A stretch of 64,000 nt of DNA from a virus (IMGVR_UViG_3300042013_000045:32001-96000); one strand, 5' to 3'. Shown: positions 8,227 to 23,395, numbered from the stretch's first letter. Notes: generated by a model from the sequence alone, not told the origin. Numbers and translations: made by a program.

Positions 8227-10602
8227 ATGAGTACTGTAATTCCAATCTACCCGTTCGACCCGGATGGTGATGCGGTCACGAACTTGGTGCACGAGCAACA
8301 GCCGCTGGAGTCCAATGGAGTCTTTGACAACTTCTACTTGATTCCACGTGCCGCACCGTTCTACGCAGGAAGCGTGCAGTTGGTTCTGTATCCAGGCGCC
8401 ATCCCGCTGATTGAAGGTAAGCACTACAACTTCGGTCACCACTTCAAGGATGCTTCGCATACCATTGGGCAGGCGATTTACGGCTCTATCACGTTCTATG
8501 ACCGTGACATGAAGGGCATCGTCGACATGACCTACCAGACCCTTGGTGGTGCATGGACTCTCGACGAGGCTACTATTCTCGAGATTCTCGAGAACGAAGT
8601 CCGTAACCCGCGCATCACGTCGTGGGAAACCATCGTTGAGTTGCCGTTCCAATTCCCGGTTGTCAACCACAAGTTCGACATTGAAGACTTCGTCGGCATG
8701 TCGGAAGTGACTACTGAACTGGCCGGTATCAAACAAGCCCTGGAAGACAAGGGCGGTGGCGCGATCGACGAGCACATTCAGAACAAGGCGAACCCGCACG
8801 AAGTGACCAAGACGCAAGTCGGTCTCGGTTTGGTGGACAACTTCCCGACAGCCTCTGTCGCTGAAGCCCAAGCGGCAACGCTCAACACCCGCTTTATGAC
8901 GCCTCTGCGTACCCGTCAAGCAATCGAGGCTGTCGCCTTGTCTGCCCTGACTGCGCACACCGGTGATCTGAACAACCCTCACCAAACCACCAAAGCCCAC
9001 GTCGGCCTCGGTCTGGTGCAGAACTACCAGCTGGCCTCTCAGGCTGAAGCTGAAGCTGCATCGAGCAACGCCCGTTACATGACTCCACTGCGAGTGCGTG
9101 AAGCGGTAGACGCTCTGGTAGGGACAGCGTTCACGGCTCACGTCGGTAACCTGAACAACCCGCACCAAGTGAACAAAGGCCACGTTGGTCTGGGCTCTGT
9201 CCAGAACTACGGTGTTGCGGCTCCAGCGGATGCGACCACCGGTACGTCCAACGTACTGTACATGACGCCTCTGCAAACCCGTAACGCGATTGCTGCGTTT
9301 GCCGGTAACAAGATTGACACTCACGCTGCTGACTTCAACAACCCACACGCGACTTCCAAGACGCACGTAGGTTTGGGGTTGGTACAGAACTTCGGCATCG
9401 CTACTGAAGCAGAAGCCCGTGATGCGACGTTGGCCACCAAGTACATGACGCCGCTGGGTGTCCGTCAGGCGATCAACGAACTGGTGGGTGATGCAGCCAT
9501 CGGTGAGCACGTTACCAACTTCAACAACCCTCACCAGGTCACGGCTGCTCAAGTCGGGGCTCCGTCGATTGCTGAGTTCAACAACGCTCTCGATCTCAAG
9601 CTGGACTCGGGTGATGCTGCGGCTAACGCCTTGGCTGTGTACGGCATGAACCAACCTGCTTTGCAGGCGTGGATCTATTCTCTGCCGTCGGGTAATGCTG
9701 ACAAGCTGGAGAACCGTTCGTTTGCTCAGGTCATGTCGGAAGTGCTGGCTGGTAAAGCGGCTGACTCCTTCCTGCTGAACGGCAAGACGTACGCTGACAT
9801 CTTGGAAGACATCGGTGATGCCACCGCGTCGAGCTCGATCCAGTACTCCATCCCTGATCTGCCTCTGGTAGTCGATGGGGCTAACGGTGAGATTGCTCCT
9901 CCTCCAAGCTGGTTGATGTTCGGTACGTTCAAGATCCCAGTCGGTTCTACCATCTGCGATCTGTCCCTGCACCTGACTGGGGGCCGTAACGATGAAGCAT
10001 TGATCGACGAGTTGCAGTCCAGCTGCTTCTTGAACGTCTCGGCGACCACCGAGTTCCCTGATGGCGGTGTGTTGACCATCGGTGTGAAGCACGCTCAGGT
10101 TCGTCACTTGAACAAAGTCGACAGTCCGATCACCCTCGCTTACCGTCCGGTGGGCAATGGTGCTAACGCTGCGGTCGAGCTGTGGATTCGTTCTGCCTCT
10201 ACCCGCACTCAGGTCACTGTCACTGAGTTGTCCTTGAACCGCTTCAACGTAGCAACGATGTCGTCGCCTGAGCTGTTGAGCGACTTGATCACCGTGCGTC
10301 CGGCGGGTGTGCTTGACTGTGAGGTCATCACTGACGGTAGCGCTGAGTTTGCTGCTGATAAAGCTGCACTCGCTGCGTTCATTGCTCGTCGTGATAACCC
10401 GCACGTGGTTACCAAAACCCAAGTCGGTTTGGGGAGTGTGCCTAACTACGCAGAGGCCACACAGGCTGAAGCCTTGGCTGGTACTGTCACCAACAAACTG
10501 ATGACGCCGAAGCTGACTAAGGATTCCATCGACGCCAGTAACGACGCGATCCTCACGGCGGTGACTGATACGCTGAACGAACTGATTCTGGACTTCAGCT
10601 AA
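8227..10602 (+). CDS. Tail fibre / baseplate-associated fibre with NPH repeats
   Basis: Six x7-NPH-x-(V/T)-x3-(Q/H)VG(LG) modules, the first five at ~61-aa period with (F/Y)MTP segments. Confidence 0.75.
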   Translation: MSTVIPIYPFDPDGDAVTNLVHEQQPLESNGVFDNFYLIPRAAPFYAGSVQLVLYPGAIPLIEGKHYNFGHHFKDASHTIGQAIYGSITFYDRDMKGIVDMTYQTLGGAWTLDEATILEILENEVRNPRITSWETIVELPFQFPVVNHKFDIEDFVGMSEVTTELAGIKQALEDKGGGAIDEHIQNKANPHEVTKTQVGLGLVDNFPTASVAEAQAATLNTRFMTPLRTRQAIEAVALSALTAHTGDLNNPHQTTKAHVGLGLVQNYQLASQAEAEAASSNARYMTPLRVREAVDALVGTAFTAHVGNLNNPHQVNKGHVGLGSVQNYGVAAPADATTGTSNVLYMTPLQTRNAIAAFAGNKIDTHAADFNNPHATSKTHVGLGLVQNFGIATEAEARDATLATKYMTPLGVRQAINELVGDAAIGEHVTNFNNPHQVTAAQVGAPSIAEFNNALDLKLDSGDAAANALAVYGMNQPALQAWIYSLPSGNADKLENRSFAQVMSEVLAGKAADSFLLNGKTYADILEDIGDATASSSIQYSIPDLPLVVDGANGEIAPPPSWLMFGTFKIPVGSTICDLSLHLTGGRNDEALIDELQSSCFLNVSATTEFPDGGVLTIGVKHAQVRHLNKVDSPITLAYRPVGNGANAAVELWIRSASTRTQVTVTELSLNRFNVATMSSPELLSDLITVRPAGVLDCEVITDGSAEFAADKAALAAFIARRDNPHVVTKTQVGLGSVPNYAEATQAEALAGTVTNKLMTPKLTKDSIDASNDAILTAVTDTLNELILDFS

Positions 10603-10610
10603 TAGTGCCA

Positions 10611-10649
10611 GGCTCACTGCATGTAACAGTGCAGTGAGTCTTTGTTTTT
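10611..10649 (+). terminator. Intrinsic terminator
   Basis: ggctcactgca/tgcagtgagtc stem followed by tttgttttt. Confidence 0.75.
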
Positions 10650-10678: not shown

Positions 10679-12127
10679 ATGAGTACCCGACCTTTAATTG
10701 CTAAGTACCCGTTGGATAAGACGGGTACCTCGCCGACGAACAAAGTCATCGGCGAGGTCCGTGAACTCAACGGTTCGCGCGATCGTGCTTTCGTTCCATT
10801 CGGTGGGCCGTTCTACACCGAAAGCTTTAAGATCATCAACAACGACACTGGCCTTCCGCTGGTTCCGGTTGATGACTACATCCTGTGCCAACCGTTCCAA
10901 CAAGCGGCGCTGCGTACCGGTAAAGATGTCCAGTGCGTGGTCTGGATCAAACTGCCTGCACCGATCACCGTTCGCTACGAGTATCAAGTAGTCGGTGGTG
11001 AGTACAGCTGGAACATCGAAGCCTTGGTGCAGATGATCAACGAGATCGATCTCGATGGCCGTCCTGTACAATGGGGTTCGATCATTGGTAAGCCTACTGC
11101 TTATCCGCCGGCTCCTCACATCCACGACATCGGCGACAGCTACGGCTGGGAATACGTGGTCTTCCAACTGGAAGGCATCCGTAATGCGATCCTCGTAGGT
11201 GACGAAGCGTCTCACGATGAACTGCGTCAACAGATGCAAGCGATTCGTGACGAATTGGAGTTGCTGATTGCAGCGGTGGACGACAAGGTCGATCTTCACA
11301 TTGCGGACTATGCTAACCCACACCGGGTGACCAAGCTGCAAGTGGGGTTGGGTCAGGTCCAGGACTTCCCGATTGCGTCTGCCTCGGAAGCGTTGGCTGG
11401 TACAGCGACTAACCGTTACATGACGCCAGCCCTGACCACCACGCTGATCAACCGTCTGATCGACGAGCAACTCGGCGCTCACATCGCTGACAAGAACAAC
11501 CCGCACAACACCACCAAAGCACAGGTGGGTCTGGGTTCGGTCTTGAACTACGGTGTGGCTACCACTGGCGAAGCACAAGCCGGTGCGGTCAACGACAAGT
11601 ACATGACTCCTGCGCTGACCAAGGCTGCGATCATGTTCGTTGTGGGCGATGCGTTCAACACTCATGTGGCGAACACCAACAATCCTCACGGTACCACTGC
11701 TACTCAAGTGGGCTTGGGTCTGGTACAGAACTACGGCGTAGCAACAACCGCTGAAGCTCTGGCAGGGACTGCGACCAACAAGTACATGACGCCTCAGTTG
11801 ACGAACGCGGCTATCAAGGCAACCGCCTCGGATGCTCTGATCGCCCACATCGCGGACAAGGGTAACCCACACGGTACTACGGCAGCTCAGGTTGGTCTCG
11901 GTAACCTCCCGAACGCCATCACCCGGAGCCGCTTCAGTAACTCTGACGCTCAACTGCTGACCGCTGGCAGCATGTTCGATCACGTGAACTCGGGTGACCA
12001 CGATGCTCGTTACAACCCGAAAAACAACGTGAGCGTGGATGGTAGTATCCATATCTCCGGTGGTCGTGGTTACGTTGCGATCAGCGGCGGGTGGCGTCAA
12101 TTCTGGCCGGCTCAGTGGGTCGGTTAA
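10679..12127 (+). CDS. Tail fibre with NPH repeats, paralogue of 8227..10602
   Basis: Similar N-terminal domain (YP.D..G....N.V..E, PFY..S, YQ..GG), four NPH repeats, short C-terminus ending GGWRQFWPAQWVG. Confidence 0.75.
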   Translation: MSTRPLIAKYPLDKTGTSPTNKVIGEVRELNGSRDRAFVPFGGPFYTESFKIINNDTGLPLVPVDDYILCQPFQQAALRTGKDVQCVVWIKLPAPITVRYEYQVVGGEYSWNIEALVQMINEIDLDGRPVQWGSIIGKPTAYPPAPHIHDIGDSYGWEYVVFQLEGIRNAILVGDEASHDELRQQMQAIRDELELLIAAVDDKVDLHIADYANPHRVTKLQVGLGQVQDFPIASASEALAGTATNRYMTPALTTTLINRLIDEQLGAHIADKNNPHNTTKAQVGLGSVLNYGVATTGEAQAGAVNDKYMTPALTKAAIMFVVGDAFNTHVANTNNPHGTTATQVGLGLVQNYGVATTAEALAGTATNKYMTPQLTNAAIKATASDALIAHIADKGNPHGTTAAQVGLGNLPNAITRSRFSNSDAQLLTAGSMFDHVNSGDHDARYNPKNNVSVDGSIHISGGRGYVAISGGWRQFWPAQWVG

Positions 12128-12171: not shown

Positions 12172-12681
12172 ATGTTACGCAAGTTGACCGATTTCCAGTT
12201 TATAGGTATCACCGAAGAGCGGTTGGCGGTTGACGCGCTGTTGGACAGTCTCTACCCGTACGATCAGGGTTTGATCAAGATCGTACGGGACGGGGGCATG
12301 CACGACGCATTCAGTATCATGGATGTGCTGGAACATGAAGACAAGCCGTTGAAGATCGAAGGGATTGAACGGTTGAACCGCATTCTGTATTCAGAGTGCC
12401 AACGACTGGGCGGCAACTTCGGTCACTACGGGCCTGTCACCTGTCATCTATTCAGGTCCCCTAAGGACTCCATCAGTTTCCCCATGCATGAGGATCTCGA
12501 CGATGTCGTGGTTCACATGGTCAAAGGGAAGAAGATCTTTGAATCTCCCTCAGGCGACCTCGAGTTACTTGAGGGGGAATCCATTTTTATCCCACGTGGC
12601 ACTAAGCACCGGGCGATCAACGTCGAAGCGTCAGTGATGTTGAGTTTTGGTATTGAGCGCTTCATCGTCGAGAAACTCTGA
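12172..12681 (+). CDS. Cupin/JmjC-like Fe(II)/2OG oxygenase
   Basis: FPMHEDLDD (HxD), MVKGKK, LLEGESIFIPRGTKHRA (distal His). Confidence 0.75.
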   Translation: MLRKLTDFQFIGITEERLAVDALLDSLYPYDQGLIKIVRDGGMHDAFSIMDVLEHEDKPLKIEGIERLNRILYSECQRLGGNFGHYGPVTCHLFRSPKDSISFPMHEDLDDVVVHMVKGKKIFESPSGDLELLEGESIFIPRGTKHRAINVEASVMLSFGIERFIVEKL

Positions 12682-13719
12682 ATGCAATCGAAAACGATCT
12701 ACGTCAAAACCACAGGTACATGCAACCTCAACTGCTCCCACTGCTTTACCAACGGGAAGTCTGGCGACAAGACCCAGTTCTGCCCCGATAGCGTGGGAGA
12801 CTGGGTTGCTGACTTTATGTCACGTTACCCGGAAGGTACGCACTACCACATGGAATTCCATGGTGGCGAGCCGTTCTTGGTTCCGGTTGCTAAGCTGAAG
12901 CAGTTTGCAGACAAGTTCCACGACAATGAAAACGTTTCCATGTGCGCCAACAGTAACCTGACGTTTAAAATTACAGATGAGCACATTAATTTCATTAAAA
13001 CATATTTTAACAGTTATATAGGCACAAGTTGGGATCATTGGATCAGATGGTCCAATCAGAAACAACTCGACCTGTGGAAGAGCAACCTCAAGTTGCTGGG
13101 TAGTCACGGGATTGGGATTGGTCTGAAGGTCTCGGTTAGCCGTGAACTGATTAAGATGTCAGCTGACTGGTTCATTGATCAGCTGGAAAGCTTCGGTGTA
13201 GAGGAAGCGTCCCTGGAGCGGTTGACCTTGGATGGCAGTGCTAACGAGAACCCAGACATCTTCCCCGATAACGAGGAACAGGATAACTGGTATCTGGCAG
13301 TGTATCAGCGCTACCACGAACGCCAGCCTACTGTCCGTATTCGCACCATGGACATCATCAAGGCAAAGCTCAAGCACAACATCGTCAAAGTCGACACCAG
13401 TTGCCGCAACTGCGAGCAGAACTTGGTGACGATCAACTCCAGCGGTACGTTGGGTGGCTGTCCCAACGTGGCTACACAGAAACACCACGCAAAACTCTCC
13501 GATGGCGTTACTGCTTTCCTTGAGTCAGACAGCCGCACGGATGACATCGTCAAGGAACTCTCCTTTGGCGAGACGTGCATGACCTGTGACGTGTTCGATC
13601 TGTGTGGTGGTGACTGTCACCGGTTGCCGTGGCAAGGTTCGCGCTGTGGGGGTTTGAAGAATACCTTGCGCTTCCTGTCCGGTCGTGTGCAGACCACCAA
13701 TCTAATTTTCAAGGGGTAG
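12682..13719 (+). CDS. Radical SAM/SPASM-domain protein
   Basis: CNLNCSHC, FHGGEP, C-terminal CRNC..GGCP..CMTCDVFDLCGGDC..C. Confidence 0.9.
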   Translation: MQSKTIYVKTTGTCNLNCSHCFTNGKSGDKTQFCPDSVGDWVADFMSRYPEGTHYHMEFHGGEPFLVPVAKLKQFADKFHDNENVSMCANSNLTFKITDEHINFIKTYFNSYIGTSWDHWIRWSNQKQLDLWKSNLKLLGSHGIGIGLKVSVSRELIKMSADWFIDQLESFGVEEASLERLTLDGSANENPDIFPDNEEQDNWYLAVYQRYHERQPTVRIRTMDIIKAKLKHNIVKVDTSCRNCEQNLVTINSSGTLGGCPNVATQKHHAKLSDGVTAFLESDSRTDDIVKELSFGETCMTCDVFDLCGGDCHRLPWQGSRCGGLKNTLRFLSGRVQTTNLIFKG

Positions 13720-13722
13720 AAC

Positions 13723-14259
13723 ATGGCTACTGATATTCTTCGGCAACATGTGGCGAACGTGGCGAACGCCTACGTCCGTAACAATGCCAACTCGGGCATC
13801 TCTTGGGGGACGAACAACTACCCAGGTGGTTCCCTAGGGTGGTTTGCTGGCGACACTAACGGTATCGCACAGGCGTTCGATGCTAACTGGATCGCTGGGG
13901 GTGATGCTTCGGCATCCAACGTCGCGGCGCACCTGCGTAACTTCGCGAACCTCTTCGGCGGTATCCGTCTTACACGCATCGTGATCTATTACCTGGACTA
14001 TCGTTACGGCACCACGGTGCAGTACGACGGTACAGCAATTGCCAACACGATCTACGGTGTGGGCGATTACGCTTCTGGTGCTGCGCTGCCTGGTTTGGCT
14101 GGCGGTGCTGACATGGACTTGAACAACCTGAACGCCTGTGGCAATAGCCTGTGGAACAGCTACTACGCTAACGCCCGGAACACAGTCCTTACTCTTACCA
14201 ACACTATCTGCCACACCAGCTGCCATGACAACTGTCACTGTGCACGCGGGCGTCGCTGA
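13723..14259 (+). CDS. Asn/Gly/Ala-rich protein with C-terminal Cys/His repeat; candidate substrate of the radical SAM cluster
   Basis: 178 aa ending ICHTSCHDNCHCARGRR; no Lys or Glu. Confidence 0.6.
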   Translation: MATDILRQHVANVANAYVRNNANSGISWGTNNYPGGSLGWFAGDTNGIAQAFDANWIAGGDASASNVAAHLRNFANLFGGIRLTRIVIYYLDYRYGTTVQYDGTAIANTIYGVGDYASGAALPGLAGGADMDLNNLNACGNSLWNSYYANARNTVLTLTNTICHTSCHDNCHCARGRR

Positions 14260-14271
14260 GGAGCCATTGTC

Positions 14272-15039
14272 GTGACAGACCTCGCCCCAAGCAATCCCAA
14301 TGAAGTGCTGGTAACCATCCCAATCCCTCCGGCCATCCTGCGTCGTAAGTTCACAGAACCGGACTTGCTGTTCGTCATTGATTACGACAACAGCAAGTTC
14401 AAAGGTAAGATGATGATCACTTACCTGTCCAACCTGAACATCAATTGCAAGTTGCAGCTGAATGACTCGGTGAATGCGTTGGAGCTGCTGTCGCAGTACT
14501 TGCGGATCACTACACTGGTCACCATTAGCGACATGGAACACCTGGCCATGCAGATGCTGTTGGCCTATTGCGGTAAACCTCACATGTTGGACTTCGACCC
14601 TGCGGAGTTCATTGCAGCGAACGATGACATCCTGACTGTGTGGAAACGTCGCTTGTTCCAACTGCCGTTGTTTGCCATGCACGTCCTGAAGAAGTTCGAG
14701 GATTACCTCGAGCAGTTCCCAGAAGACGATGATGACGGGATGTACGGTATCAACTACGTGCACTTGATCAAGCATGAAGACTTCGCCATCCTGATGCACG
14801 GTTACACCGATGACCTGCTGACCAAGAACACCACGCTCTTCAACGAGTACCTGTTCGCCGGCAAGAACTTGTTCCACTACTTCGCAGTTCAAAGCAATCC
14901 GCTCTTCATGGGCGTGTTGTCGTTGCAGGACGAAGCATCCTTCAACCTGATGAAGCCTGCGCTGGCAGAGGCTGCTAAGCAGTTGGAGCTGGTAGTGCCG
15001 ACGATCCAATTGAGGATTGCCAATGTACCATCTATTTGA
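14272..15039 (+). CDS. Hypothetical protein of the radical SAM cluster
   Basis: 255-aa ORF, GTG start after GAGGAG. Confidence 0.75.
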   Translation: MTDLAPSNPNEVLVTIPIPPAILRRKFTEPDLLFVIDYDNSKFKGKMMITYLSNLNINCKLQLNDSVNALELLSQYLRITTLVTISDMEHLAMQMLLAYCGKPHMLDFDPAEFIAANDDILTVWKRRLFQLPLFAMHVLKKFEDYLEQFPEDDDDGMYGINYVHLIKHEDFAILMHGYTDDLLTKNTTLFNEYLFAGKNLFHYFAVQSNPLFMGVLSLQDEASFNLMKPALAEAAKQLELVVPTIQLRIANVPSI

Positions 15040-16075
15040 TTCGGTCTACGTCGATACGCACTCGCGCATTGATCGTACACAGGACGTTATCACCATCGGC
15101 AATCAACTGGGTTACGAATACTTCCCAGATGAACGTGCGGTGGTCGGTAAGCAACTGGCTTTCGCTGAGAGCCTGGACGACGTGACCCCTGAAGCCTTCG
15201 TAGAAATGTTCACGTTGGCCAAAGCGTCGAAGAAGGCCACGGTCTTCTGTTGCGGTGGAACGTACCTGAGGCTGTACACGCTGTTGGTGAAAGCTCTGCT
15301 GCCTGCGGTGGATCTGGAAACCTTCAAGTGGATCATGCTCTGCAAGAAGGCCACGTTCAACACCACCTTGACCAACATCCGCAAACCTGTGGTTGATGTG
15401 ATCGGTTCGGTGACGATCACTGGCAAAGTCATTGAAGAGCTGTACGCCTTCGAAGACCCACTGCTGCCTGCAATGCAGGAAGTGATCCTTCAGGACAAGA
15501 CCACCCTGTCGCTCGAATGGCGCATCTTGCGCTTGAAGACTGACCAACGGGTCGGCATGCTGCCAAAGGTGCTCAAACGCATCCTGCACCGCATTGCATT
15601 GGCTAACACGCATGACGCCTTGGATGTCTGGGGTCGTGTACTTACCGAACCAGAGAACTGGGAATTCGGTGGCTGTGACTTCGACAGTCTGTTGAACGCT
15701 CCTACGGTGTTCGAAGGGTCGATGGCGTTGCAGTTCTCCAACAACCCAATGTTCCTTCAACCGAACCTGTTCGATCAAGAACCGTCGGATGACTGGATCA
15801 AAGGTTTGTTGTCTGAACTGATCCCAATGCTGGCTCACTGTGACGAAGGCCCAACGGCCGGGCGCACCAAGTTGATCCTCAAGCTGTTGCAAGAGCAGGT
15901 CAACCTGTACAACCCAGAAGTTTGTCTCGAACGCGTGATGACCATGTTCCACGGTCCAAAGCGTCTGGCACTTCCAAACCGAGATTCCGGCAAGTACGAC
16001 GAGAACTTGATCCGGTACATCCTACGAACTGACGTGGTTATTTTGAAGGCCTGCGTCGAAGGAGCTGAATGGTGA
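15023..16075 (+). CDS. Hypothetical protein of the radical SAM cluster
   Basis: 350-aa ORF; ATG at 15023 preceded by GAGGA; overlaps both neighbours. Confidence 0.75.
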   Translation: MYHLFDSVYVDTHSRIDRTQDVITIGNQLGYEYFPDERAVVGKQLAFAESLDDVTPEAFVEMFTLAKASKKATVFCCGGTYLRLYTLLVKALLPAVDLETFKWIMLCKKATFNTTLTNIRKPVVDVIGSVTITGKVIEELYAFEDPLLPAMQEVILQDKTTLSLEWRILRLKTDQRVGMLPKVLKRILHRIALANTHDALDVWGRVLTEPENWEFGGCDFDSLLNAPTVFEGSMALQFSNNPMFLQPNLFDQEPSDDWIKGLLSELIPMLAHCDEGPTAGRTKLILKLLQEQVNLYNPEVCLERVMTMFHGPKRLALPNRDSGKYDENLIRYILRTDVVILKACVEGAEW

Positions 16076-17070
16076 GTAATCTTATCCCACTCGTGGACAT
16101 CTTGCAGGATAAGAAGGGCAAGTACAAGGAAGCTCACTTGATCCTTTTTGAGCGCTGCAACATGCGCTGCTCGTTTTGCCACCAGGACCACGACTCGGAA
16201 GTCGGGATGAGTGGGGAAGATGTACTTGCTAAAGTGGACACGTTCATCATGAACTCCGATCCTAATGACGCCTATGTGGTGAACATTACGGGTGGTGAGT
16301 TGTTCATGGACGACGTCCCTGATGAACTGTTCGAATACTACTTCTTGGCCGGTAAGGCGATCCTGCAACGCTTCGAGGACGTCAAGCTGGTCTTTGGTAC
16401 GAACCTCGTTTATCAGAACACGGCCCGCGTTCGTCGTTTGATGCAGCGACTGCATCCATTCGGTCACGCCTGTCTGGCAACCTCGTACGATCCTGCTGGG
16501 CGGTTCAACGGGGAGCAGCGTAAGTTGTTCCTTGAGAACCTGATGGAGTTCGAGGCGATGATTGAGACTGTCAACGTGGTCATCACACGACAGAACATCG
16601 ACATCTTCTTGAAAGGCCAAGAGGGGCCTGAGTTCGACGTCATGGTCGCAGGCTTCGATGTCTACTTCGACCATTACATCCCGAGTACGCGTTACGAAGA
16701 GCATCAGCCTACAGAACACGCGATCAGCGAACTGTACCTGAGGCTCAATGAACGTTACCCCAACTCCTATCCGATCAAAGCATGGAAAGAGAACCAATTC
16801 AACGACACCACTTGCCGGTCTACCAAGATCATCAACAGCAATGGCATCGTGACCACGTGTTGGTCTGAAGCGGGGAAAGACTCTGTGCTGGATGAAGGAC
16901 AGGGCTTGGCGTTGAAACAAGCGGCCGAAGATCGGTTCCTTGAGAAGTACAACTGTCTGGCGTGTGAGTATTACCAGCGGTGCGGTTTGCGTTGCTTCTT
17001 GCATCACAGCTTTGTTGAAGACGGCTCAGACGAGTGTCAGATCAAAGTTATGTTCGACAAGGTATTGTGA
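16069..17070 (+). CDS. Radical SAM protein with SPASM-like C-terminus
   Basis: CNMRCSFC, TGGEL, C-terminal C..TTC..CLACEYYQRCGLRC..C. Confidence 0.88.
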   Translation: MVSNLIPLVDILQDKKGKYKEAHLILFERCNMRCSFCHQDHDSEVGMSGEDVLAKVDTFIMNSDPNDAYVVNITGGELFMDDVPDELFEYYFLAGKAILQRFEDVKLVFGTNLVYQNTARVRRLMQRLHPFGHACLATSYDPAGRFNGEQRKLFLENLMEFEAMIETVNVVITRQNIDIFLKGQEGPEFDVMVAGFDVYFDHYIPSTRYEEHQPTEHAISELYLRLNERYPNSYPIKAWKENQFNDTTCRSTKIINSNGIVTTCWSEAGKDSVLDEGQGLALKQAAEDRFLEKYNCLACEYYQRCGLRCFLHHSFVEDGSDECQIKVMFDKVL

Positions 17071-17077
17071 AGTGTCT

Positions 17078-17103
17078 AGGACTAGGGGATATCCCCTAGT
17101 CCT
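17078..17103. terminator. 26-bp perfect palindrome inside the cluster
   Basis: aggactaggggat|atcccctagtcct followed by ctttatct. Confidence 0.65.
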
Positions 17104-17129: not shown

Positions 17130-17327
17130 ATGAACCAATTCGAATTGTCTGCTGATGGATACGAATCTGCTGTAGCTTGGTTGAACGACAATGGTCATAG
17201 TGCGCACCTAGACTCCGACCGGGCTCCGATGGATGGTTACACGATCATCACCCTGGCCAACTCGCTGAAGAACAACGCGACTGTACAGACCCAGGCTTTC
17301 CTGCGTCCAGTTCTGCAAGCCTGCTAA
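17130..17327 (+). CDS. Small hypothetical protein
   Basis: 65-aa ORF filling the gap between the hairpin and the next rSAM gene. Confidence 0.55.
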   Translation: MNQFELSADGYESAVAWLNDNGHSAHLDSDRAPMDGYTIITLANSLKNNATVQTQAFLRPVLQAC

Positions 17328-17338
17328 GAGGCAACACC

Positions 17339-18433
17339 GTGAACCTGATTATCAAACCGACCGTAGCGTGTAACTTTAAGTGCACGTTCTGTTCCAGCAC
17401 TCATCTCTCTGAAGAACCCAAAGACATCGTTGAGTTGGAGGACATCGAAGCCTTCATCAAACGTTATCCTCACACCAGCACCATCATCGTCAACGGAGGC
17501 GATCCGCTGATGATGCCTCCGTCGTACTACTACTCGATCATGGAGATCTTGGACAAGTACGAGTGTCCTGCCATTCTGTCGTTCACCAGTAACCTCTGGG
17601 CGTTCTACAAGAAGCCTGAGATGTGGGCACCTCTGTTCAAGCTTGACCGAGTAGGGGTGACCACCTCGTTCCAATACGGCGACAAACGCCTGAAGGGTGA
17701 CGGGACTGTGTTCACGGAAGAAGAGTTCATTGCTGTCAGTGATCTGTTCTTGGAGCACGTGGGTTATCGTCCGGACTTCATTGCCGTGATCGACACCGAC
17801 AACGCTCACACCGTTCTCGACACTGTACGGCTTGCTCAGCGACTGGACGTCGAAGCCAAGGTCAACTACGTCTCAGCATCCGGGCCAGAGGTGACCAAGA
17901 AAGGCATCACGATGGGCAGCATCAATCACATGTATGCTCAAGCGGATATCTACGAGCAGTACTTGTCGATCTACGATGCCGGTCTCATGAAGTGGGAATA
18001 CAACACCAAGCAGATGGTCAAGCGCCTGAACCTAGGTACCACGACCTGTCCCTTGGCGCGTCACTGTGATGAAGGCATTCGTGCACTGCAACCGGGGAAG
18101 AACTATTACTCCTGTGGCAGCTTTGGAGATGACAACGAATACCCAATCGACTTCGGCAAGGAAATGGCGGGTGAGTTCTTCACTCCACTGCGCAATGAGG
18201 AAGCGCTGCATTCCATGAAGGAGTCGTGCAATGTCTGTCCTATGTTCTCAATCTGCAATGGCTGTCGTAAGACCATCGCTGATACCAAACGCCTAGGGCT
18301 GGTTGAGCATCACTGCAAGAAGATGAAGTCCCTTGCTCCACGTATCATCGACGCCAACGGCATGACCGGCATTCTCGAGCCGACGCCGTACGAAGATGAA
18401 TCCATCCAACTGATTCCACTCATCGCAATGTAA
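17339..18433 (+). CDS. Radical SAM/SPASM-like protein
   Basis: IIKPTVACNFKCTFC, NGGDPL, C-terminal CPLARHC..YSC..CNVCPMFSICNGC..C. Confidence 0.9.
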   Translation: MNLIIKPTVACNFKCTFCSSTHLSEEPKDIVELEDIEAFIKRYPHTSTIIVNGGDPLMMPPSYYYSIMEILDKYECPAILSFTSNLWAFYKKPEMWAPLFKLDRVGVTTSFQYGDKRLKGDGTVFTEEEFIAVSDLFLEHVGYRPDFIAVIDTDNAHTVLDTVRLAQRLDVEAKVNYVSASGPEVTKKGITMGSINHMYAQADIYEQYLSIYDAGLMKWEYNTKQMVKRLNLGTTTCPLARHCDEGIRALQPGKNYYSCGSFGDDNEYPIDFGKEMAGEFFTPLRNEEALHSMKESCNVCPMFSICNGCRKTIADTKRLGLVEHHCKKMKSLAPRIIDANGMTGILEPTPYEDESIQLIPLIAM

Positions 18434-18443
18434 AGAGAGCACC

Positions 18444-19370
18444 ATGAAGCCAGCAATCAATGTCTCCCTCAACGTTTCGTATTACTGTAACTTCCGGTGC
18501 TCTTTCTGTTACTTGACTGAAGAACAACTTGGTGACCGTACCAAGGTGAACCTCGAGCTGCTAGCTTCACGGATCGATGAGATCTTGGCATACTACACCA
18601 TCGAGCACGTAGACCTGTATGGCGGAGAAGTCCTGCTGTTACCCAAGGCGTATCTGCTCGGCATCAAAGAGATCCTCCATGCACGCGGTATCACCGACAT
18701 CGTGTTGATCACGAACCTCTCGCTCGTCAATGAGATCGCTAACGATCCAGACTTTGAGATCTCGGTCTCTTACGACTTCGGGGCGAGAGAGAAGGCAGAT
18801 GAAGTCCTCGGTAATATGTTCATGCTGGAGAATCGGTTCACTGTCTTGACGCTGGCCTCTCGTGCGTTCTTAGACACGGTATCGGTCGACGAGTACGTTG
18901 ACACCATGAACCTGTTAAACCGTCTCAAAACGGCTGAGATCAAGCCGTACAGCAGTAACCAAGCCAACGATCACGCAGTACAGTTTGATGAATTCGAAAA
19001 CTTCGTCTGGGCAGTGATAAACCACCCTAACCGCGAGTTCTATTTCGAGAACCGCAGTCAGGTGAAAGAAGCTGTAGAGACTGGCAACCGTAATGCCTTC
19101 AGTGACAACCACATCTACATCACTCCGACGGGCGACTTCGCCGTCCTTGAGTTCGATGGTAAGGATCGTGAGTTCTTCCTGAAGGTAGACGGGATGGCGG
19201 GCTACCGGGCGTGGTGTGATGCAGAGAAGAAGCGGGTCAATGCGAACCCGTACTGCCAAGCGTGCCCTTACAATGGCAAGTGTCTCTCTGAGCACTTAAG
19301 AGAAGTCGTGACCTTGGAACATTCCTGTAATGGGTTCAAAGGTCTACTAGACAGGTGGGCAGCACAATGA
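18444..19370 (+). CDS. Radical SAM protein
   Basis: CNFRCSFC, YGGEV, C-terminal CQACPYNGKC..HSC. Confidence 0.88.
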   Translation: MKPAINVSLNVSYYCNFRCSFCYLTEEQLGDRTKVNLELLASRIDEILAYYTIEHVDLYGGEVLLLPKAYLLGIKEILHARGITDIVLITNLSLVNEIANDPDFEISVSYDFGAREKADEVLGNMFMLENRFTVLTLASRAFLDTVSVDEYVDTMNLLNRLKTAEIKPYSSNQANDHAVQFDEFENFVWAVINHPNREFYFENRSQVKEAVETGNRNAFSDNHIYITPTGDFAVLEFDGKDREFFLKVDGMAGYRAWCDAEKKRVNANPYCQACPYNGKCLSEHLREVVTLEHSCNGFKGLLDRWAAQ

Positions 19371-20404
19371 TGGTACAACACCGGCAACGGTTGGAGATCA
19401 CCCTCGATATCTTCCGGGGGTGTAAGCACGCTTGTTCGGGGTGCATGATCGACAAGGCTATCGGCGGGGATGTGACTGACATTCCTGAACTGTTGGACTT
19501 GATCAAGGAGATGACGGCTGCGGGTTACGTGGCATTCGACTTAGGTGTGGGTCCGACGGACTACATGTCTTCAGACAACACCGCGGAAGTCATGACCAAC
19601 CCGGTCTTCAACGAGATGGCTCAACTGTTTCACCAGATAACGTTTAACGCAGCCTTTCTTGAGAAGGACTTGGAACAGTACGCTAGCATGTGTGCTGACA
19701 TCGATGAGGCAGCACCGGGTAAGGCCATTCGTTTCCTTATTCCTGCTGCCCCGACGTTCTTCAAGTCTGACAAGTTCGGCAACATGATCAAGATGAAGCT
19801 TGAGTTTATCAAGAACGCTATGAAGTCAGCGTACTTGAACGAAGCTGGCTTTGTGGTGAACTGCACTACGGAGACGGTTGGTGAGGATTTCGATGTCCGC
19901 ATGATGGATGGCTTTGAAGTAGAGTTCCCGGTGGACAAGGATGACATCCTAAACATCCCTTACGGGCGCTCTCCGAACAAAGACCTGATGCTGGCACAGA
20001 ACATCAAGCGGATCAGTCACCGCATCAGTGAGTTCTATGCCAAGTTGAACGGTATCGATGAACGTCGACGCAACCCCGACCTCCATTACGACACGGGGAC
20101 GATGGTCAACCTGCTGTACACCGGCGGTAAGTTGTATTGGGTGCCGTTCCTTAAGGATGACTGTCCGTTCATTGACGACGACTTTACGATCCCACGCCCC
20201 TGGACTATGGATAACCTGCTGGCAGTCCGTAGCAAGGCTCTGGAGAGTTCTCTGGAGTACTTGGAGGACACGCCGTGCATGAACTGCGTCTATGTCAGTA
20301 GTTGTGCTGAGAAAGGCATCACCAGCATCATGAAGAAGATGGCGATCAAAGATTGCCTAGTGGGGTTACAACATGCTTTCCCAACAGATCTCGATGTCGT
20401 TTAA
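19367..20404 (+). CDS. Divergent radical SAM-like protein
   Basis: GCKHACSGC, GPTD in place of GGEP, C-terminal CMNCVYVSSC..C; ATGA overlap. Confidence 0.7.
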   Translation: MMVQHRQRLEITLDIFRGCKHACSGCMIDKAIGGDVTDIPELLDLIKEMTAAGYVAFDLGVGPTDYMSSDNTAEVMTNPVFNEMAQLFHQITFNAAFLEKDLEQYASMCADIDEAAPGKAIRFLIPAAPTFFKSDKFGNMIKMKLEFIKNAMKSAYLNEAGFVVNCTTETVGEDFDVRMMDGFEVEFPVDKDDILNIPYGRSPNKDLMLAQNIKRISHRISEFYAKLNGIDERRRNPDLHYDTGTMVNLLYTGGKLYWVPFLKDDCPFIDDDFTIPRPWTMDNLLAVRSKALESSLEYLEDTPCMNCVYVSSCAEKGITSIMKKMAIKDCLVGLQHAFPTDLDVV

Positions 20405-21407
20405 CATCTCGCTCGAGGTATTGACGGGGTGTCGTTACAGTTGTGCGGGGTGTACGGTTGAGAAGAACTTTGCACCCTTGGATGTGTCCGAGAAAGACAC
20501 CGACGATCTAGTAGTTATGCTCGATGATCTGATTGCTGATGGGTATCGGTTGTTGGAGTTCCGAGTGGGGCCGACGGATATCATCTCTGCGGATAATGGG
20601 TTCCCTGCATTGAAGCATCGTTTGACGCGTGAGTTCGGCAAGCGCTACAAGGCGTTGAACTTGAACATGGCGATGCTTCACGATGAAGGCTTAGTAGAGC
20701 TGGCAGAGATCTTGGACGAAGTCATTCCTGGAAAGCTGCTCAGCGTTACTCTACCCATCACATTAAAAAATACACACAACGACAAGTACATTGGTGAATT
20801 GAAAAAAAGAGTGCTGTATTTTAAGGGACTGTTGAAGACTGTAAACTTCAACAGGATCTATCTCACTTTGAATGTGGGGGAAGAAAACCTAAAGCACTTG
20901 AGCACTGAGAGTTATGATCATGCCCATGAACTTGACTTAGGTGTCGATCTTGTAGTGGAGTTCCCGTTCGCTCATTCAAGGAAGGGGTTCGGTAACCTGC
21001 TGGTCGTGGATGAGTTCAAGGCTGATCTGGTAGAGTTCGTGGACTTCATGAAGACACGGGTTAACACAAGGGGCTTTCGTCCATTGCAACCTGCAATCTT
21101 AGAAGGTTTCGAATTCACCTATCGGGGAGGGCTTCTGTACTCTGTCCCCGTGGTCGTGGAGAGCCTTCCGATGTTCCATCCGATGTTTGTGGTGGATCGT
21201 CCGTGGACCGCCCAGAGCATCTACGCCTACAAGGAGCAACATTACTACAACAACCTCGAGACGTTCCTAGAACACCCCGAGTGTGGTGACTGCATGTTCC
21301 TAGACCATTGCGCACGTGGGGACGTCCATCGGATCATGAACTTGATCGGGACTGACAAGTGCCTGACTGATTCCAAGAATAGATGGGAATACTTCCACCC
21401 GGAGTAA
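20373..21407 (+). CDS. Divergent radical SAM-like protein, paralogue of 19367..20404
   Basis: GCRYSCAGC, GPTD, C-terminal CGDCMFLDHC..C. Confidence 0.7.
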   Translation: MLSQQISMSFNISLEVLTGCRYSCAGCTVEKNFAPLDVSEKDTDDLVVMLDDLIADGYRLLEFRVGPTDIISADNGFPALKHRLTREFGKRYKALNLNMAMLHDEGLVELAEILDEVIPGKLLSVTLPITLKNTHNDKYIGELKKRVLYFKGLLKTVNFNRIYLTLNVGEENLKHLSTESYDHAHELDLGVDLVVEFPFAHSRKGFGNLLVVDEFKADLVEFVDFMKTRVNTRGFRPLQPAILEGFEFTYRGGLLYSVPVVVESLPMFHPMFVVDRPWTAQSIYAYKEQHYYNNLETFLEHPECGDCMFLDHCARGDVHRIMNLIGTDKCLTDSKNRWEYFHPE

Positions 21408-21410
21408 ACT

Positions 21411-21848
21411 ATGCTCAATCCTGATGACATCATGATCACTGACGGCGTCGAGATTCCGCACTGGTTGTTAGATGAAGCAATGTGCTTGGAGAACCGTAAG
21501 TTCATTGAGGTCGAGAACATCGTCGACTTCACATGGAACTACCTCCGTGCTTACGCTCTCAAGCACCCTCTCGTGAATAAGCCGATCCGTCCGTGTGCCA
21601 GTCACATCAACATTGGCCATCATGGGGTGACACCTCACAACCACGAACCCCATGCGTTCACCTCCGTCCTGTACTTATTGGATGCTGAGGGTGAGCTGCG
21701 GTTCTGGGATAACGTTGATCTGTCCATCACACCCAAAGAGGGACGGTTCGTTATGTTCCCTGGTCACATCACCCATTACGTCGAAGCATCCAAGCAAGCC
21801 GAACTTCGCATCTCGCTGGTAACCAACTATGAATACTACCCGACATGA
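21411..21848 (+). CDS. Fe(II)/2OG oxygenase-like protein (HxH...H type)
   Basis: PHNH..FTSVLYL, PKEGRFVMFPGHITHYV, RISL. Confidence 0.75.
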   Translation: MLNPDDIMITDGVEIPHWLLDEAMCLENRKFIEVENIVDFTWNYLRAYALKHPLVNKPIRPCASHINIGHHGVTPHNHEPHAFTSVLYLLDAEGELRFWDNVDLSITPKEGRFVMFPGHITHYVEASKQAELRISLVTNYEYYPT

Positions 21849-22275
21849 GTACAAGGATTACCAGGAGCTGTACCAACTCCTGGTGACCGACCATCCTGAT
21901 GCGTTTGCCAACATGGAGATCGTTGAAGAAGAAGAACTCGTGCACAACGCACTGAAGTACTTCGACCATGCGACCTTCCCTTTGATTTACCCGGCCAAGA
22001 GTTATGCCGTGGCGATCATCTACGCTTACAAGATCAAAGAGGTCTACGGTGTTCCTGTTCTTACTACCCTGGATGACCCGGATCTGTTCCTTGGTCAAGA
22101 CCCTTACTTCGTACCGTACTCAGCGGACAAGGCGACGTATACGGACATTATCGCTCATCTCCAGGATCGACCAAACTTCCTCAATGAAGGATGGGCACCC
22201 CAAACCGTGAAGTACTTCTACGCCGAGTGTACGGCTGAAGGGATTGAAAAGTTGCAAGAGGAGTTCTGCAAATGA
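21829..22275 (+). CDS. Hypothetical protein of the radical SAM cluster
   Basis: 148-aa Tyr-rich acidic ORF overlapping both neighbours. Confidence 0.7.
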   Translation: MNTTRHEYKDYQELYQLLVTDHPDAFANMEIVEEEELVHNALKYFDHATFPLIYPAKSYAVAIIYAYKIKEVYGVPVLTTLDDPDLFLGQDPYFVPYSADKATYTDIIAHLQDRPNFLNEGWAPQTVKYFYAECTAEGIEKLQEEFCK

Positions 22276-22838
22276 ACATCATCCAGCCATGGAAGATCGA
22301 GATCGGTCATGTCAACGTCAATGGCACCCCTTGGGACATGACTGAATTCGCCACAGAAGTGTTCAACCTGAACCTGATGACCGGTGGGCAACAAGAGACC
22401 CAGGTCAGCTTGGGTTCTGGCCTCTGTCCCATCATTCTGGAGATGCGTGACACTCTCATTACGCCGCTGGTCAAAGAGTTCGCACGGAATCAGCTTGGGT
22501 ACATCCTGCGAGACGGTGAGTTCGAAGTCGAGACCAACGCCAAGTGGATTCCCAAAGGCGAAGGTCTCTATCCTCACCAGCACTCCAGTTCGATCCTGTC
22601 GGTCATTGTCTACCCACAGGACTCCAAGTCTGGGTTGAACTTCTTTGACCCTCGCACGAATGCTGGTCGTGGGTTTCCTCGTGAGATCCGTGATGAACAC
22701 TTTGCCCGTTATGCCATCTCGCCTAAAGCCGGCGATGTGTTCATCTTCCCCAGTTACCTTCAGCACAGCGTTTCGTATGTAGAAGAAGACATCCGTCTCT
22801 CGCTGTTGCATGAATACTATCCACATTCCACTCGCTGA
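22272..22838 (+). CDS. Fe(II)/2OG oxygenase-like protein (TIGR02466-like)
   Basis: PHQH..LSVIVYP, FFDPR, PKAGDVFIFPSYLQHSV, RLS. Confidence 0.8.
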   Translation: MNIIQPWKIEIGHVNVNGTPWDMTEFATEVFNLNLMTGGQQETQVSLGSGLCPIILEMRDTLITPLVKEFARNQLGYILRDGEFEVETNAKWIPKGEGLYPHQHSSSILSVIVYPQDSKSGLNFFDPRTNAGRGFPREIRDEHFARYAISPKAGDVFIFPSYLQHSVSYVEEDIRLSLLHEYYPHSTR

Positions 22839-22846
22839 GAGCTCTC

Positions 22847-23395
22847 ATGGAAATCATACAACCTTGGCAAGTCAAGATTGCCCGTGTCAACATCGCTGAG
22901 TTTGTAGACCTCGAAGGTCTGGCTGGCGAGATCCATCAACTGCACTGCCTGTCCCCTCGGGAGTCTGCGACGCCGTACCCAGTCACACCCGCTGAGTTCC
23001 CGCTGATCTGCGCGGCACGTGACGGTATCATCACTGACAAGGTCAGCGAATACATCGAAGAAGCCTTCGGTGTAAGTCCTCTGGGGATGGTGATCGACAC
23101 CTTTGGCAAGTGGTTCGGTAAAGGGGAAGAGCTGGGTTCTCACCTGCACGGCAACTCCAATGTGACCAGTGTGTTCTATCCGTACGAATACAGCACGGGC
23201 ATGATGCTGATGGACCCTCGCTTCAACGCACAGCGCGGTTACTCGCGTCGTGTCCGTGATACCCACTTCGGGGATTACAATGCACGGCCTAAAGCTGGCG
23301 ATCTCTGGATCGTACCGAGCTACGTGCAGCACAGCATCCCTACGGTGAAGGACGATCTGCGTATCTCCCTCATCAACGACTTCCACTTCATTTAA
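22847..23395 (+). CDS. Fe(II)/2OG oxygenase-like protein, tandem paralogue
   Basis: SHLH..TSVFYP, LMDPR, PKAGDLWIVPSYVQHSI, RIS; N-terminus IIQPW shared with the previous gene. Confidence 0.8.
   Translation: MEIIQPWQVKIARVNIAEFVDLEGLAGEIHQLHCLSPRESATPYPVTPAEFPLICAARDGIITDKVSEYIEEAFGVSPLGMVIDTFGKWFGKGEELGSHLHGNSNVTSVFYPYEYSTGMMLMDPRFNAQRGYSRRVRDTHFGDYNARPKAGDLWIVPSYVQHSIPTVKDDLRISLINDFHFI

Follow-up and report, generated by a model that had tools for sequence, protein, structure and literature searches.

The window, that is, the whole stretch of DNA that was analyzed, is 64,000 nucleotides long and belongs to a 172.8-kb virus record. Our analysis concerned a small gene in this window, here called X, and the genes that surround it. 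The relevant features are as follows.

8227-10602 (+), paralogue of the fiber-like gene at 10679-12127; phrog_2163 and many tail-fiber PHROGs
10610-10641 (+), terminator-like hairpin before the second fiber gene; 13-bp stem
10679-12127 (+), tail-fiber-like gene directly upstream of the core; phrog_2163 and tail-fiber PHROGs
12172-12681 (+), first core gene, small cupin/JmjC-like Fe(II) oxygenase; Pfam JmjC_2 and Cupin_2
12682-13719 (+), rSAM1, radical SAM/SPASM enzyme directly upstream of X; CxxxCxxC motif and eight SPASM Cys
13723-14259 (+), gene X, from translation a 178-aa protein in which a predicted alpha/beta body is followed by a Cys-His tail at the C-terminus
14209-14256 (+), tail of X, CHTSCHDNCHCARGRR; consensus C-H-x-S-C-H-x-[SN]-C-H-x-[SAN]-R-G-R-R-COOH
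14272-15039 (+), Y, conserved 255-aa protein, found after X in nearly all loci; phrog_20767
15017-16075 (+), Z, poorly conserved 352-aa protein in a conserved position
16069-17070 (+), rSAM2, second radical SAM enzyme and last core gene; CNMRCSFC motif
17078-17103 (+), terminator-like hairpin after rSAM2, from a consensus scan; 11-bp stem with 7 GC pairs
17339-21407 (+), four more radical SAM genes (starts 17339, 18444, 19355 and 20373); CxxxCxxC motifs

Gene X and its neighborhood

Translation of 13723-14259 on the plus strand confirmed the preliminary description of X as a 178-aa reading frame with three Cys-His pairs and an RGRR end; the C-terminus reads CHTSCHDNCHCARGRR and is followed by the stop codon. 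The protein contains 22 Asn, 21 Gly, 26 Ala and 11 Tyr but 0 Lys and 0 Glu, whereas every neighbor of X has 5–75 Lys or Glu residues. The start of X was said to lie 3 nt after a SPASM radical SAM gene, and this was also correct: the rSAM1 stop codon (TAG, 13717-13719) is followed by an AAC spacer and by the ATG at 13723, and the upstream gene carries the full SPASM Cys motif. An AAGGGG run resembling a Shine-Dalgarno sequence lies inside the 3′ end of the rSAM1 gene, ahead of X. This run, together with the 3-nt spacer, suggests that rSAM1 and X are translationally coupled. A degenerate DNA pattern in which Cys-His pairs recur three times, every 4 codons, matched once in the window and in 0 of 100 shuffled sequences; it occurs a single time in the entire 172.8-kb record, which holds one copy of gene X. 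An antisense reading frame of 391 aa (13834-15009, −) overlaps X and Y, and is most likely spurious because hundreds of homologues back the plus-strand reading.

We compared the region with related loci (58 from IMG/VR plus several metagenome contigs) that were annotated with iterated HMMs derived from the proteins of the window. Nearly all 64 loci showed the series cupin, rSAM1, X, Y, Z, rSAM2, which held down to 26% identity of X, with stops and starts that often overlapped. The association of X with a radical SAM/SPASM gene was thereby borne out, as X directly followed rSAM1 in nearly every one of the 64 loci. Homologues of rSAM2 were present in 53 of them, usually directly after Z. The homologue P0198, whose tail lacks R-G-R-R, has the same neighbors as other X loci.

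Most loci have a tail-fiber gene immediately upstream of the core, and two distinct fiber types occupy this slot. Relatives of the window’s fiber genes were upstream in 26 loci, mostly those of closer relatives. In many loci of more distant phages the fiber is of another type, whose members share a ~190-residue C-terminal domain with matches to phrog_22593 and phrog_19602 and a weak one to Pfam Peptidase_G2 (IMC domain; 23.2 bits against a cut-off of 25). This second type lies upstream of the cupin gene in seven loci (L029, L032, L037, L040, L048, L049, L002), and in five others (L057, L058, L060, L061, L064) it abuts X, with no enzyme gene between. In the window, the two strong terminator-like hairpins bracket the genes from the second fiber gene to rSAM2, a span that coincides with this fiber gene plus the six conserved core genes and that may form one transcription unit, judging from the DNA.

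Protein Y was predicted with high confidence by AlphaFold2 (pLDDT 90); fold searches and a profile search gave no PDB match for it, and an atlas look-up was also empty. Protein Z had no Pfam, NCBIfam or PDB sequence match and an empty atlas look-up, and its sole invariant residue was E167.

Among isolated phages, DNA-level similarity to the window was seen only in Pseudomonas phage pPa_SNUABM_DT01. The gene order of DT01 is identical, and its X protein (PA10_00065) shares 49% identity with that of the window and ends CHTSCHTSCHSARGRR. The paper describing DT01 merely lists six radical SAM genes (PMC8541153).

The four peripheral radical SAM genes of the window are less widely conserved than the core. 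Two of them (starts 17339 and 18444) belong to PHROG 1802. The other two (19355-20404 and 20373-21407, +) are paralogues with 24% identity over 328 aa and the motifs CKHACSGC and CRYSCAGC; neither had an NCBIfam match at E ≤ 0.01, and the pair is conserved in ~30 related loci. Beyond these, window positions 21411-23395 (+) hold small paralogous genes (22272 and 22847 share 36% identity, and 21411 is distantly related) that correspond to annotated 2OG-Fe(II) oxygenase genes of DT01. In total, the island encodes six radical SAM enzymes and several oxygenases. Small reading frames between rSAM2 and rSAM3 (window 17130-17327, +, 65 aa; DT01 PA10_00061, L001 15494-15673, 59 aa) were considered as a second substrate and rejected: their sequences are unrelated between the window and DT01, and they are probably not a conserved gene. 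We concluded that the window region is a structural and tailoring block of a jumbo phage.

Conservation of the tail and predicted fold of the body

A word-indexed search returned 50 homologues of X (164–192 aa), several of them on contigs of 200–275 kb. The residues invariant in their alignment included C163, H164, S166, C167, H168, C171, H172, R175, G176, R177 and R178. A profile search over 1.84 billion cluster representatives then extended the family to 536 matches at E ≤ 0.001, of which 209 were at E ≤ 1e-10. The family is PHROG 35144, annotated ‘unknown function’, and its hundreds of members come from jumbo and T4-like phages of soil, compost, fresh water and sea.

Nearly all of 198 sequences ended in C-H-x-[SN]-C-H-x-[SN]-C-H-x-[SNA]-R-x-R-R. 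In an alignment of 189 homologues, ten tail residues (C163, H164, S166, C167, H168, C171, H172, R175, R177 and R178) were 91–100% conserved, and the entropy per column was 0–0.4 bits at the tail positions versus a mean of ~2.7 bits in the body. The 43 distant members shared only 21–46% identity with the X of the window, yet all ten tail residues were invariant among them. Whether the tail stays constant while the N-terminal domain varies had been proposed in advance as a test, and the 189 homologues gave the predicted outcome of a nearly invariant tail on a divergent body (22–46% identity), so that it is the tail that defines the family. In contrast, a fourth Cys (C173) that had been noted in the tail does not belong to the motif; it falls in a column that is not conserved and is most often Ser (28%).

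Codon usage in 56 distinct tails indicated that the constraint acts on the peptide. Both Cys codons (TGC and TGT), both His codons (CAC and CAT), both Ser families (AGY and TCN) and both Arg families were used about evenly, and every invariant tail position showed synonymous variation, as expected from selection on the peptide.

The absence of Lys and Glu held for X itself and not for the family. Only X and the two relatives closest to it, P0003 and P0004, lack both residues; most homologues contain both, and several others lack Lys only. The suggestion that a Glu-free protein would resist a Glu-specific protease was therefore rejected, the composition being a quirk of three close relatives and not a conserved property.

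The number of repeats varied by whole C-H-x-S units, with two units in P0096 and P0129 and four in P0128, P0134, P0158 and P0198. The tail block is duplicated in P0054, and locus L065 has a long array of many C-H-x-S units. Such whole-unit variation in repeat number is as in multi-core substrates.

Several unusual members deserve separate mention. In P0054 and in the expanded X of L065 (3-362; contig labelled Dysosmobacter segnis), the C-H-x-S units are split by short V/P linkers; in L065 the expanded gene is followed by Y, Z and two radical SAM genes, and this contig, of 4.3 kb, has the look of phage DNA that entered a bacterial assembly. Short X paralogues (129–140 aa) arranged as tandem pairs, each copy with a (CHxS)3-RGRR tail, occur in L057, L058, L060 and L061 (~5270-6090 in L060 and L061) and in L066 (6053-6879). 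The homologue P0007 (WP_252940927.1, labelled Streptomyces sp. CHB9.2) is 62% identical to X and lies on a contig of 241,743 bp, the size of a jumbo phage, so it probably comes from a phage whose genome was assembled along with bacterial DNA. A scan of the genome_contigs set found three loci only, which resembled phage contigs within bacterial assemblies.

The body of X (~160 residues) is predicted to be an alpha/beta domain without a known fold. AlphaFold2, run with the family alignment, gave a compact model (pLDDT 86.8, pTM 0.80) in which confidence dropped across the last 14 residues. The preliminary view that the core is carried on a folded domain and not on a leader peptide agrees with this model; that is, X is 178 aa long and confidently folded in the model, unlike a short precursor with a removable disordered leader. 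The proposed likeness of the body to a fiber adhesin, in contrast, was not upheld: Foldseek gave no match in the PDB, and hhalign comparison of X with both fiber proteins of the window showed no profile similarity (probability <1%). An exhaustive wide VIA-align search reached a best Z of only 3.8, with nothing usable, and a search of the ESM Atlas was equally unproductive. Searching BFVD returned uncharacterized phage proteins only, including the homologues from DT01 and Atu_ph07. The protein had no Pfam domain and no NCBIfam match; rare longer forms of X are fused at the N-terminus to Pfam Gly_rich_2.

In the AlphaFold2 model, tail residues 165–174 form a short helix that would put Cys, His and Ser on one face. 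This geometry raises the question of whether the tail is a metal-binding motif. That is, its three Cys and three His could bind Zn, Fe, Cu or an Fe-S cluster, perhaps across the subunits of an oligomer, and thereby stabilize or activate a virion protein, while the island enzymes act elsewhere, for example on the fibers. Three Cys-His pairs make a good metal site, the 4-residue period would align them on one face of the predicted helix, and the enzymes of the island outnumber the apparent needs of the tail. Phage fibers, moreover, do use His-coordinated metal ions, as in T4 gp37 and gp12. We nonetheless consider this explanation unlikely, because the spacing and the flanks of a metal-binding tail can usually vary, whereas in this family there is hardly any change at the Ser/Asn position or in the R-G-R-R end, and the repeat number changes in whole-unit blocks. 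The translational coupling of X to rSAM1, suggested in nearly all loci, argues in the same direction. A metal site would in any case be compatible with covalent modification of the tail as well, which is the reading that we prefer and that the enzymes and particle proteins described below bear upon.

Core enzymes and comparison with known systems

The rSAM1 protein has the hallmarks of a radical SAM/SPASM enzyme. Among 33 orthologues, the CxxxCxxC residues C14, C18 and C21 were invariant, as were eight C-terminal Cys (C241, C244, C260, C299, C302, C308, C312 and C322) that include the SPASM signature C299-x2-C302-x5-C308-x3-C312. The TIGR04085 domain scored 24.5 bits, just below its cut-off of 27. 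The best NCBIfam matches were YhhB (49.9 bits, cut-off 445), AmcB (48.0, 425), FxsB (42.8, 370), PapB (42.7, 340), anSME (42.0, 349), DarE, DynA and HxsB (30.7, 370); as a group they scored 31–50 bits against cut-offs of 340–650. The nearest PDB structures were 8vpo, anSME, CteB, ChlB and YydG, and the nearest named relatives are peptide or protein maturases. Because these matches fall far below the cut-offs, rSAM1 belongs to the superfamily and to no named family, and its chemistry cannot be read from its sequence.

The conserved core includes two further enzymes. The cupin is probably active as an Fe(II) oxygenase, since its H106-x-D108...H146 triad and K121 were invariant in 58 orthologues. 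Judged by their intact catalytic motifs, both rSAM1 and the cupin look active. The second radical SAM protein, rSAM2, scored 19.5 bits against HxsC (cut-off 267.9). A complex prediction for rSAM1 and X with SAM and three 4Fe-4S clusters gave a score of 0.02 (mark 0.32), which neither supports nor opposes binding. The locus shows the general features of a radical SAM/SPASM enzyme with an adjacent substrate, namely the CxxxCxxC motif, the SPASM Cys motif and a conserved neighboring gene, X, with a conserved tail motif.

We compared this arrangement with known systems. In the HXS system, the radical SAM enzymes HxsB and HxsC, with HxsD, mature the protein HxsA, with a covalent change of +8 Da located in the motif S-H-R-S-S (Li et al., Nat Commun 2026, PMC13128918). 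Like HxsA, X presents His-x-Ser units on a folded protein (a predicted fold in the case of X) among two radical SAM enzymes and small helpers. However, HXS is a bacterial, periplasmic system of antiphage defense, whereas X is encoded by a phage and has a homologue in virions; and the HXS repeat has a period of 3 without Cys, whereas the C-H-x-S units of X have a period of 4, lie at the extreme C-terminus and finish in R-G-R-R. Both rSAM1 and rSAM2 fell below the HxsB and HxsC cut-offs and are not members of the HXS families (TIGR03976-03979).

The enzymes of triceptides and three-residue cyclophanes (YhhB, AmcB, FxsB, HaaB and HtkB) are SPASM radical SAM proteins that act on aromatic-x-x repeats, including those with His; these cyclophane synthases link C2 of His to C-beta of residue i+2 (PMC11499958). 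YhhB, AmcB and FxsB are the top NCBIfam matches of rSAM1, and the units H-x-S, H-x-[SN] and H-x-[SAN] of X fit the aromatic-x-x rule, which is a match of pattern and not evidence of a cross-link. On the other side, rSAM1 scored about 43–50 bits against cut-offs of 370–445, and the triceptide precursors are short peptides, made up of leader and core, that yield released natural products, whereas X is 178 aa long and has an invariant Cys in front of every His of the tail repeat.

Thioether chemistry offers another parallel. The ranthipeptide and sactipeptide enzymes PapB and CteB are SPASM enzymes that make Cys thioethers in periodic Cys motifs; PapB aligns along all of rSAM1, and the CteB structure (5wgg) ranks among the closest in the PDB. 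However, the tail of X has no Asp/Glu acceptor at a fixed distance from Cys, and Cys-X3-Asp is absent. Thioether chemistry alone would also leave the invariance of His and Ser in the tail unexplained. Two systems act on whole proteins: QhpD modifies a protein subunit, QhpC, that is encoded next door, and anSME (PDB 4K36-4K39), which also aligns along the full rSAM1, is a minimal radical SAM/SPASM enzyme modifying Cys or Ser in a whole folded sulfatase. The sulfatase motif C/S-x-P/A-x-R is missing from the X tail, however, and rSAM1 reached 42.0 of the 349 bits needed for anSME.

Particle evidence and proposed role of X

We used rSAM1 as a route to isolated phages, since tblastn with two distant members of the X family found nothing among them. 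Orthologues of rSAM1 (~37% identity) were present in the isolated Ralstonia jumbo phages RSL2 and RSF1, the FLC4 phages and RsoM3USA, and further in the isolated jumbo phages Burkholderia FLC6, FLC8 and SURPRISE13, Agrobacterium Atu_ph07 and Sinorhizobium Phosso. In RSL2, the gene after rSAM1 encodes an X family member (ORF068, 186 aa) that ends CHSSCHTSCHGSRGRR. In Atu_ph07, the gene after rSAM1 likewise encodes a family member, gp170, of 296 aa, with the tail FCHSSCHASCHNSRSRR and the end CHSSCHASCHNSRSRR. This is a distant homologue, found by the family profile and not by plain tblastn with P0001.

The preliminary description had called for virion proteomics, and published data on Atu_ph07 provided it. 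In purified particles, gp170 was identified by ESI-MS/MS with 8 unique peptides and 35% coverage (PMC6102473, Table S5). The neighboring cupin (gp172), rSAM1 (gp171), Y (gp169) and radical SAM protein gp168 were absent from the same list (Table S5). Our calculated mass for gp170, 31.89 kDa, equals the value in Table S5 of that paper; those of gp176 and gp177 match exactly as well, so the protein numbering is identical. The particles were PEG-purified, and a few non-structural proteins are also in the list (PMC6102473). This evidence that X-family proteins are virion proteins is good but not decisive, and it concerns a distant homologue.

The distribution of gp170 in the gel is of further interest. 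It was seen in bands 1–9 and was most abundant in band 1, where the other proteins are of 87–127 kDa (PMC6102473). A 32-kDa protein in such a band may be part of an SDS-stable species of high mass. However, no reducing agent appears in the description of the loading buffer, so disulfides could explain the gp170 of band 1.

Taken together, these results favor, slightly more than they leave in doubt, the reading that X is a fiber-associated protein of the virion and that the radical SAM enzymes encoded with it, possibly together with the oxygenase, modify its tail covalently. We infer the modification itself, the enzyme responsible, the chemistry and the location at the fiber; for the modification, the basis is gene neighborhood and conservation. 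Under this reading, X would be associated with the virion, probably with the tail fiber, and would expose its 16-residue tail, (Cys-His-x-Ser)x3-Arg-Gly-Arg-Arg, as the substrate of the co-translated SPASM enzyme rSAM1. The JmjC-like oxygenase, rSAM2, Y and Z may act on the tail too. Inside the infected cell, and ahead of assembly, every Cys-His-x-Ser unit would receive covalent changes, and the modified protein would then be built into the particle beside the fiber encoded just upstream. The changes could be cross-links of His or Cys side chains of the cyclophane, thioether or HXS type; a thioether from Cys is as possible as a His cyclophane. The HXS enzymes and the His-linking cyclophane synthases described above set precedents for such chemistry. 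A modified particle protein appears to be the simplest account because it brings together the selection on the tail at the peptide level, the apparent coupling to rSAM1, the conserved oxygenase and rSAM2, and the presence of an X protein in particles without the enzymes. One point against it is that six radical SAM enzymes and several oxygenases exceed the obvious needs of a 16-residue tail, and some of them may act elsewhere, for example on the fibers.

The wealth of enzymes around one invariant C-terminus (six radical SAM proteins, a cupin and 2OG-type oxygenases) would also suit a protein that serves as a scaffold for a small product of the PQQ, mycofactocin or pearlin type. In such a scheme, the enzymes would build on the C-terminal residues, the product would be cut off, and the body would be a recognition handle, a large predicted folded one in place of a leader peptide. 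We regard this as improbable: Pfam, PHROG and NCBIfam searches found no protease or transporter in the conserved core, the homologue gp170 is abundant in particles, and the link to fiber genes fits a structural role better.

Still less probable, in our judgment, is that X corresponds in the phage to the effector of HXS and, as a basic His-x-Ser protein in modified form, would act on DNA entry (for example in superinfection exclusion or in ejection of the phage’s own genome) and not as a fiber component, because the H-x-S units, the basic end, the weak HxsB and HxsC matches and the two radical SAM enzymes around X, like HxsB/HxsC around HxsA (PMC13128918), are outweighed by scores far under the cut-offs (30.7 versus 370 bits and 19.5 versus 267.9), by the lack of any HxsA match for X at E ≤ 0.01, by the lack of any Pfam domain, hence of a detected peptidoglycan-binding domain, and by a repeat period of 4 with an invariant Cys instead of 3.

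If X is indeed a modified virion protein, the consequence for the phage might be a chemically hardened or a metal- or redox-active fiber tip for attack on the host, and such a state could explain the peak of gp170 in the top gel band. The known roles of radical SAM/SPASM enzymes lie in making natural products from peptides and in maturing a small number of cellular proteins, and phage virion proteins mature by proteolysis and self-catalyzed cross-links; we know of no phage virion protein that matures via dedicated radical enzymes. Literature searches on jumbo-phage radical SAM/SPASM systems, phage-encoded RiPPs and host-recognition clusters turned up no account of the X protein or its motif in the papers that could be searched. 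X may be the first case of radical SAM maturation of a phage particle protein, with a tail cross-linked within itself or to the fiber by dedicated phage enzymes, although we put this stronger claim at somewhat below an even chance. The occurrence of hundreds of family members across phages and habitats would make the modification a common but unstudied stage in the construction of the apparatus that recognizes the host. Whatever its kind, chemistry on this tail would add a Cys-His-x-Ser substrate class to radical SAM enzymology.

The module is present in cultivable phages (Pseudomonas DT01, Ralstonia RSL2 and RSF1, Burkholderia FLC6 and FLC8, and Agrobacterium Atu_ph07), and because the motif is short and invariant, a single tryptic peptide reports on the tail. 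The virion proteome of Phi-RP31 (PMC5468394) was considered and set aside as evidence on X, because that phage has a different radical SAM cluster with no evident X. In Atu_ph07, two proteins encoded upstream of the module, gp176 and gp177 (66.07 and 21.66 kDa; NC_042013, L069 2962-5434), are also particle proteins (PMC6102473, Table S5) and could be partners of gp170.
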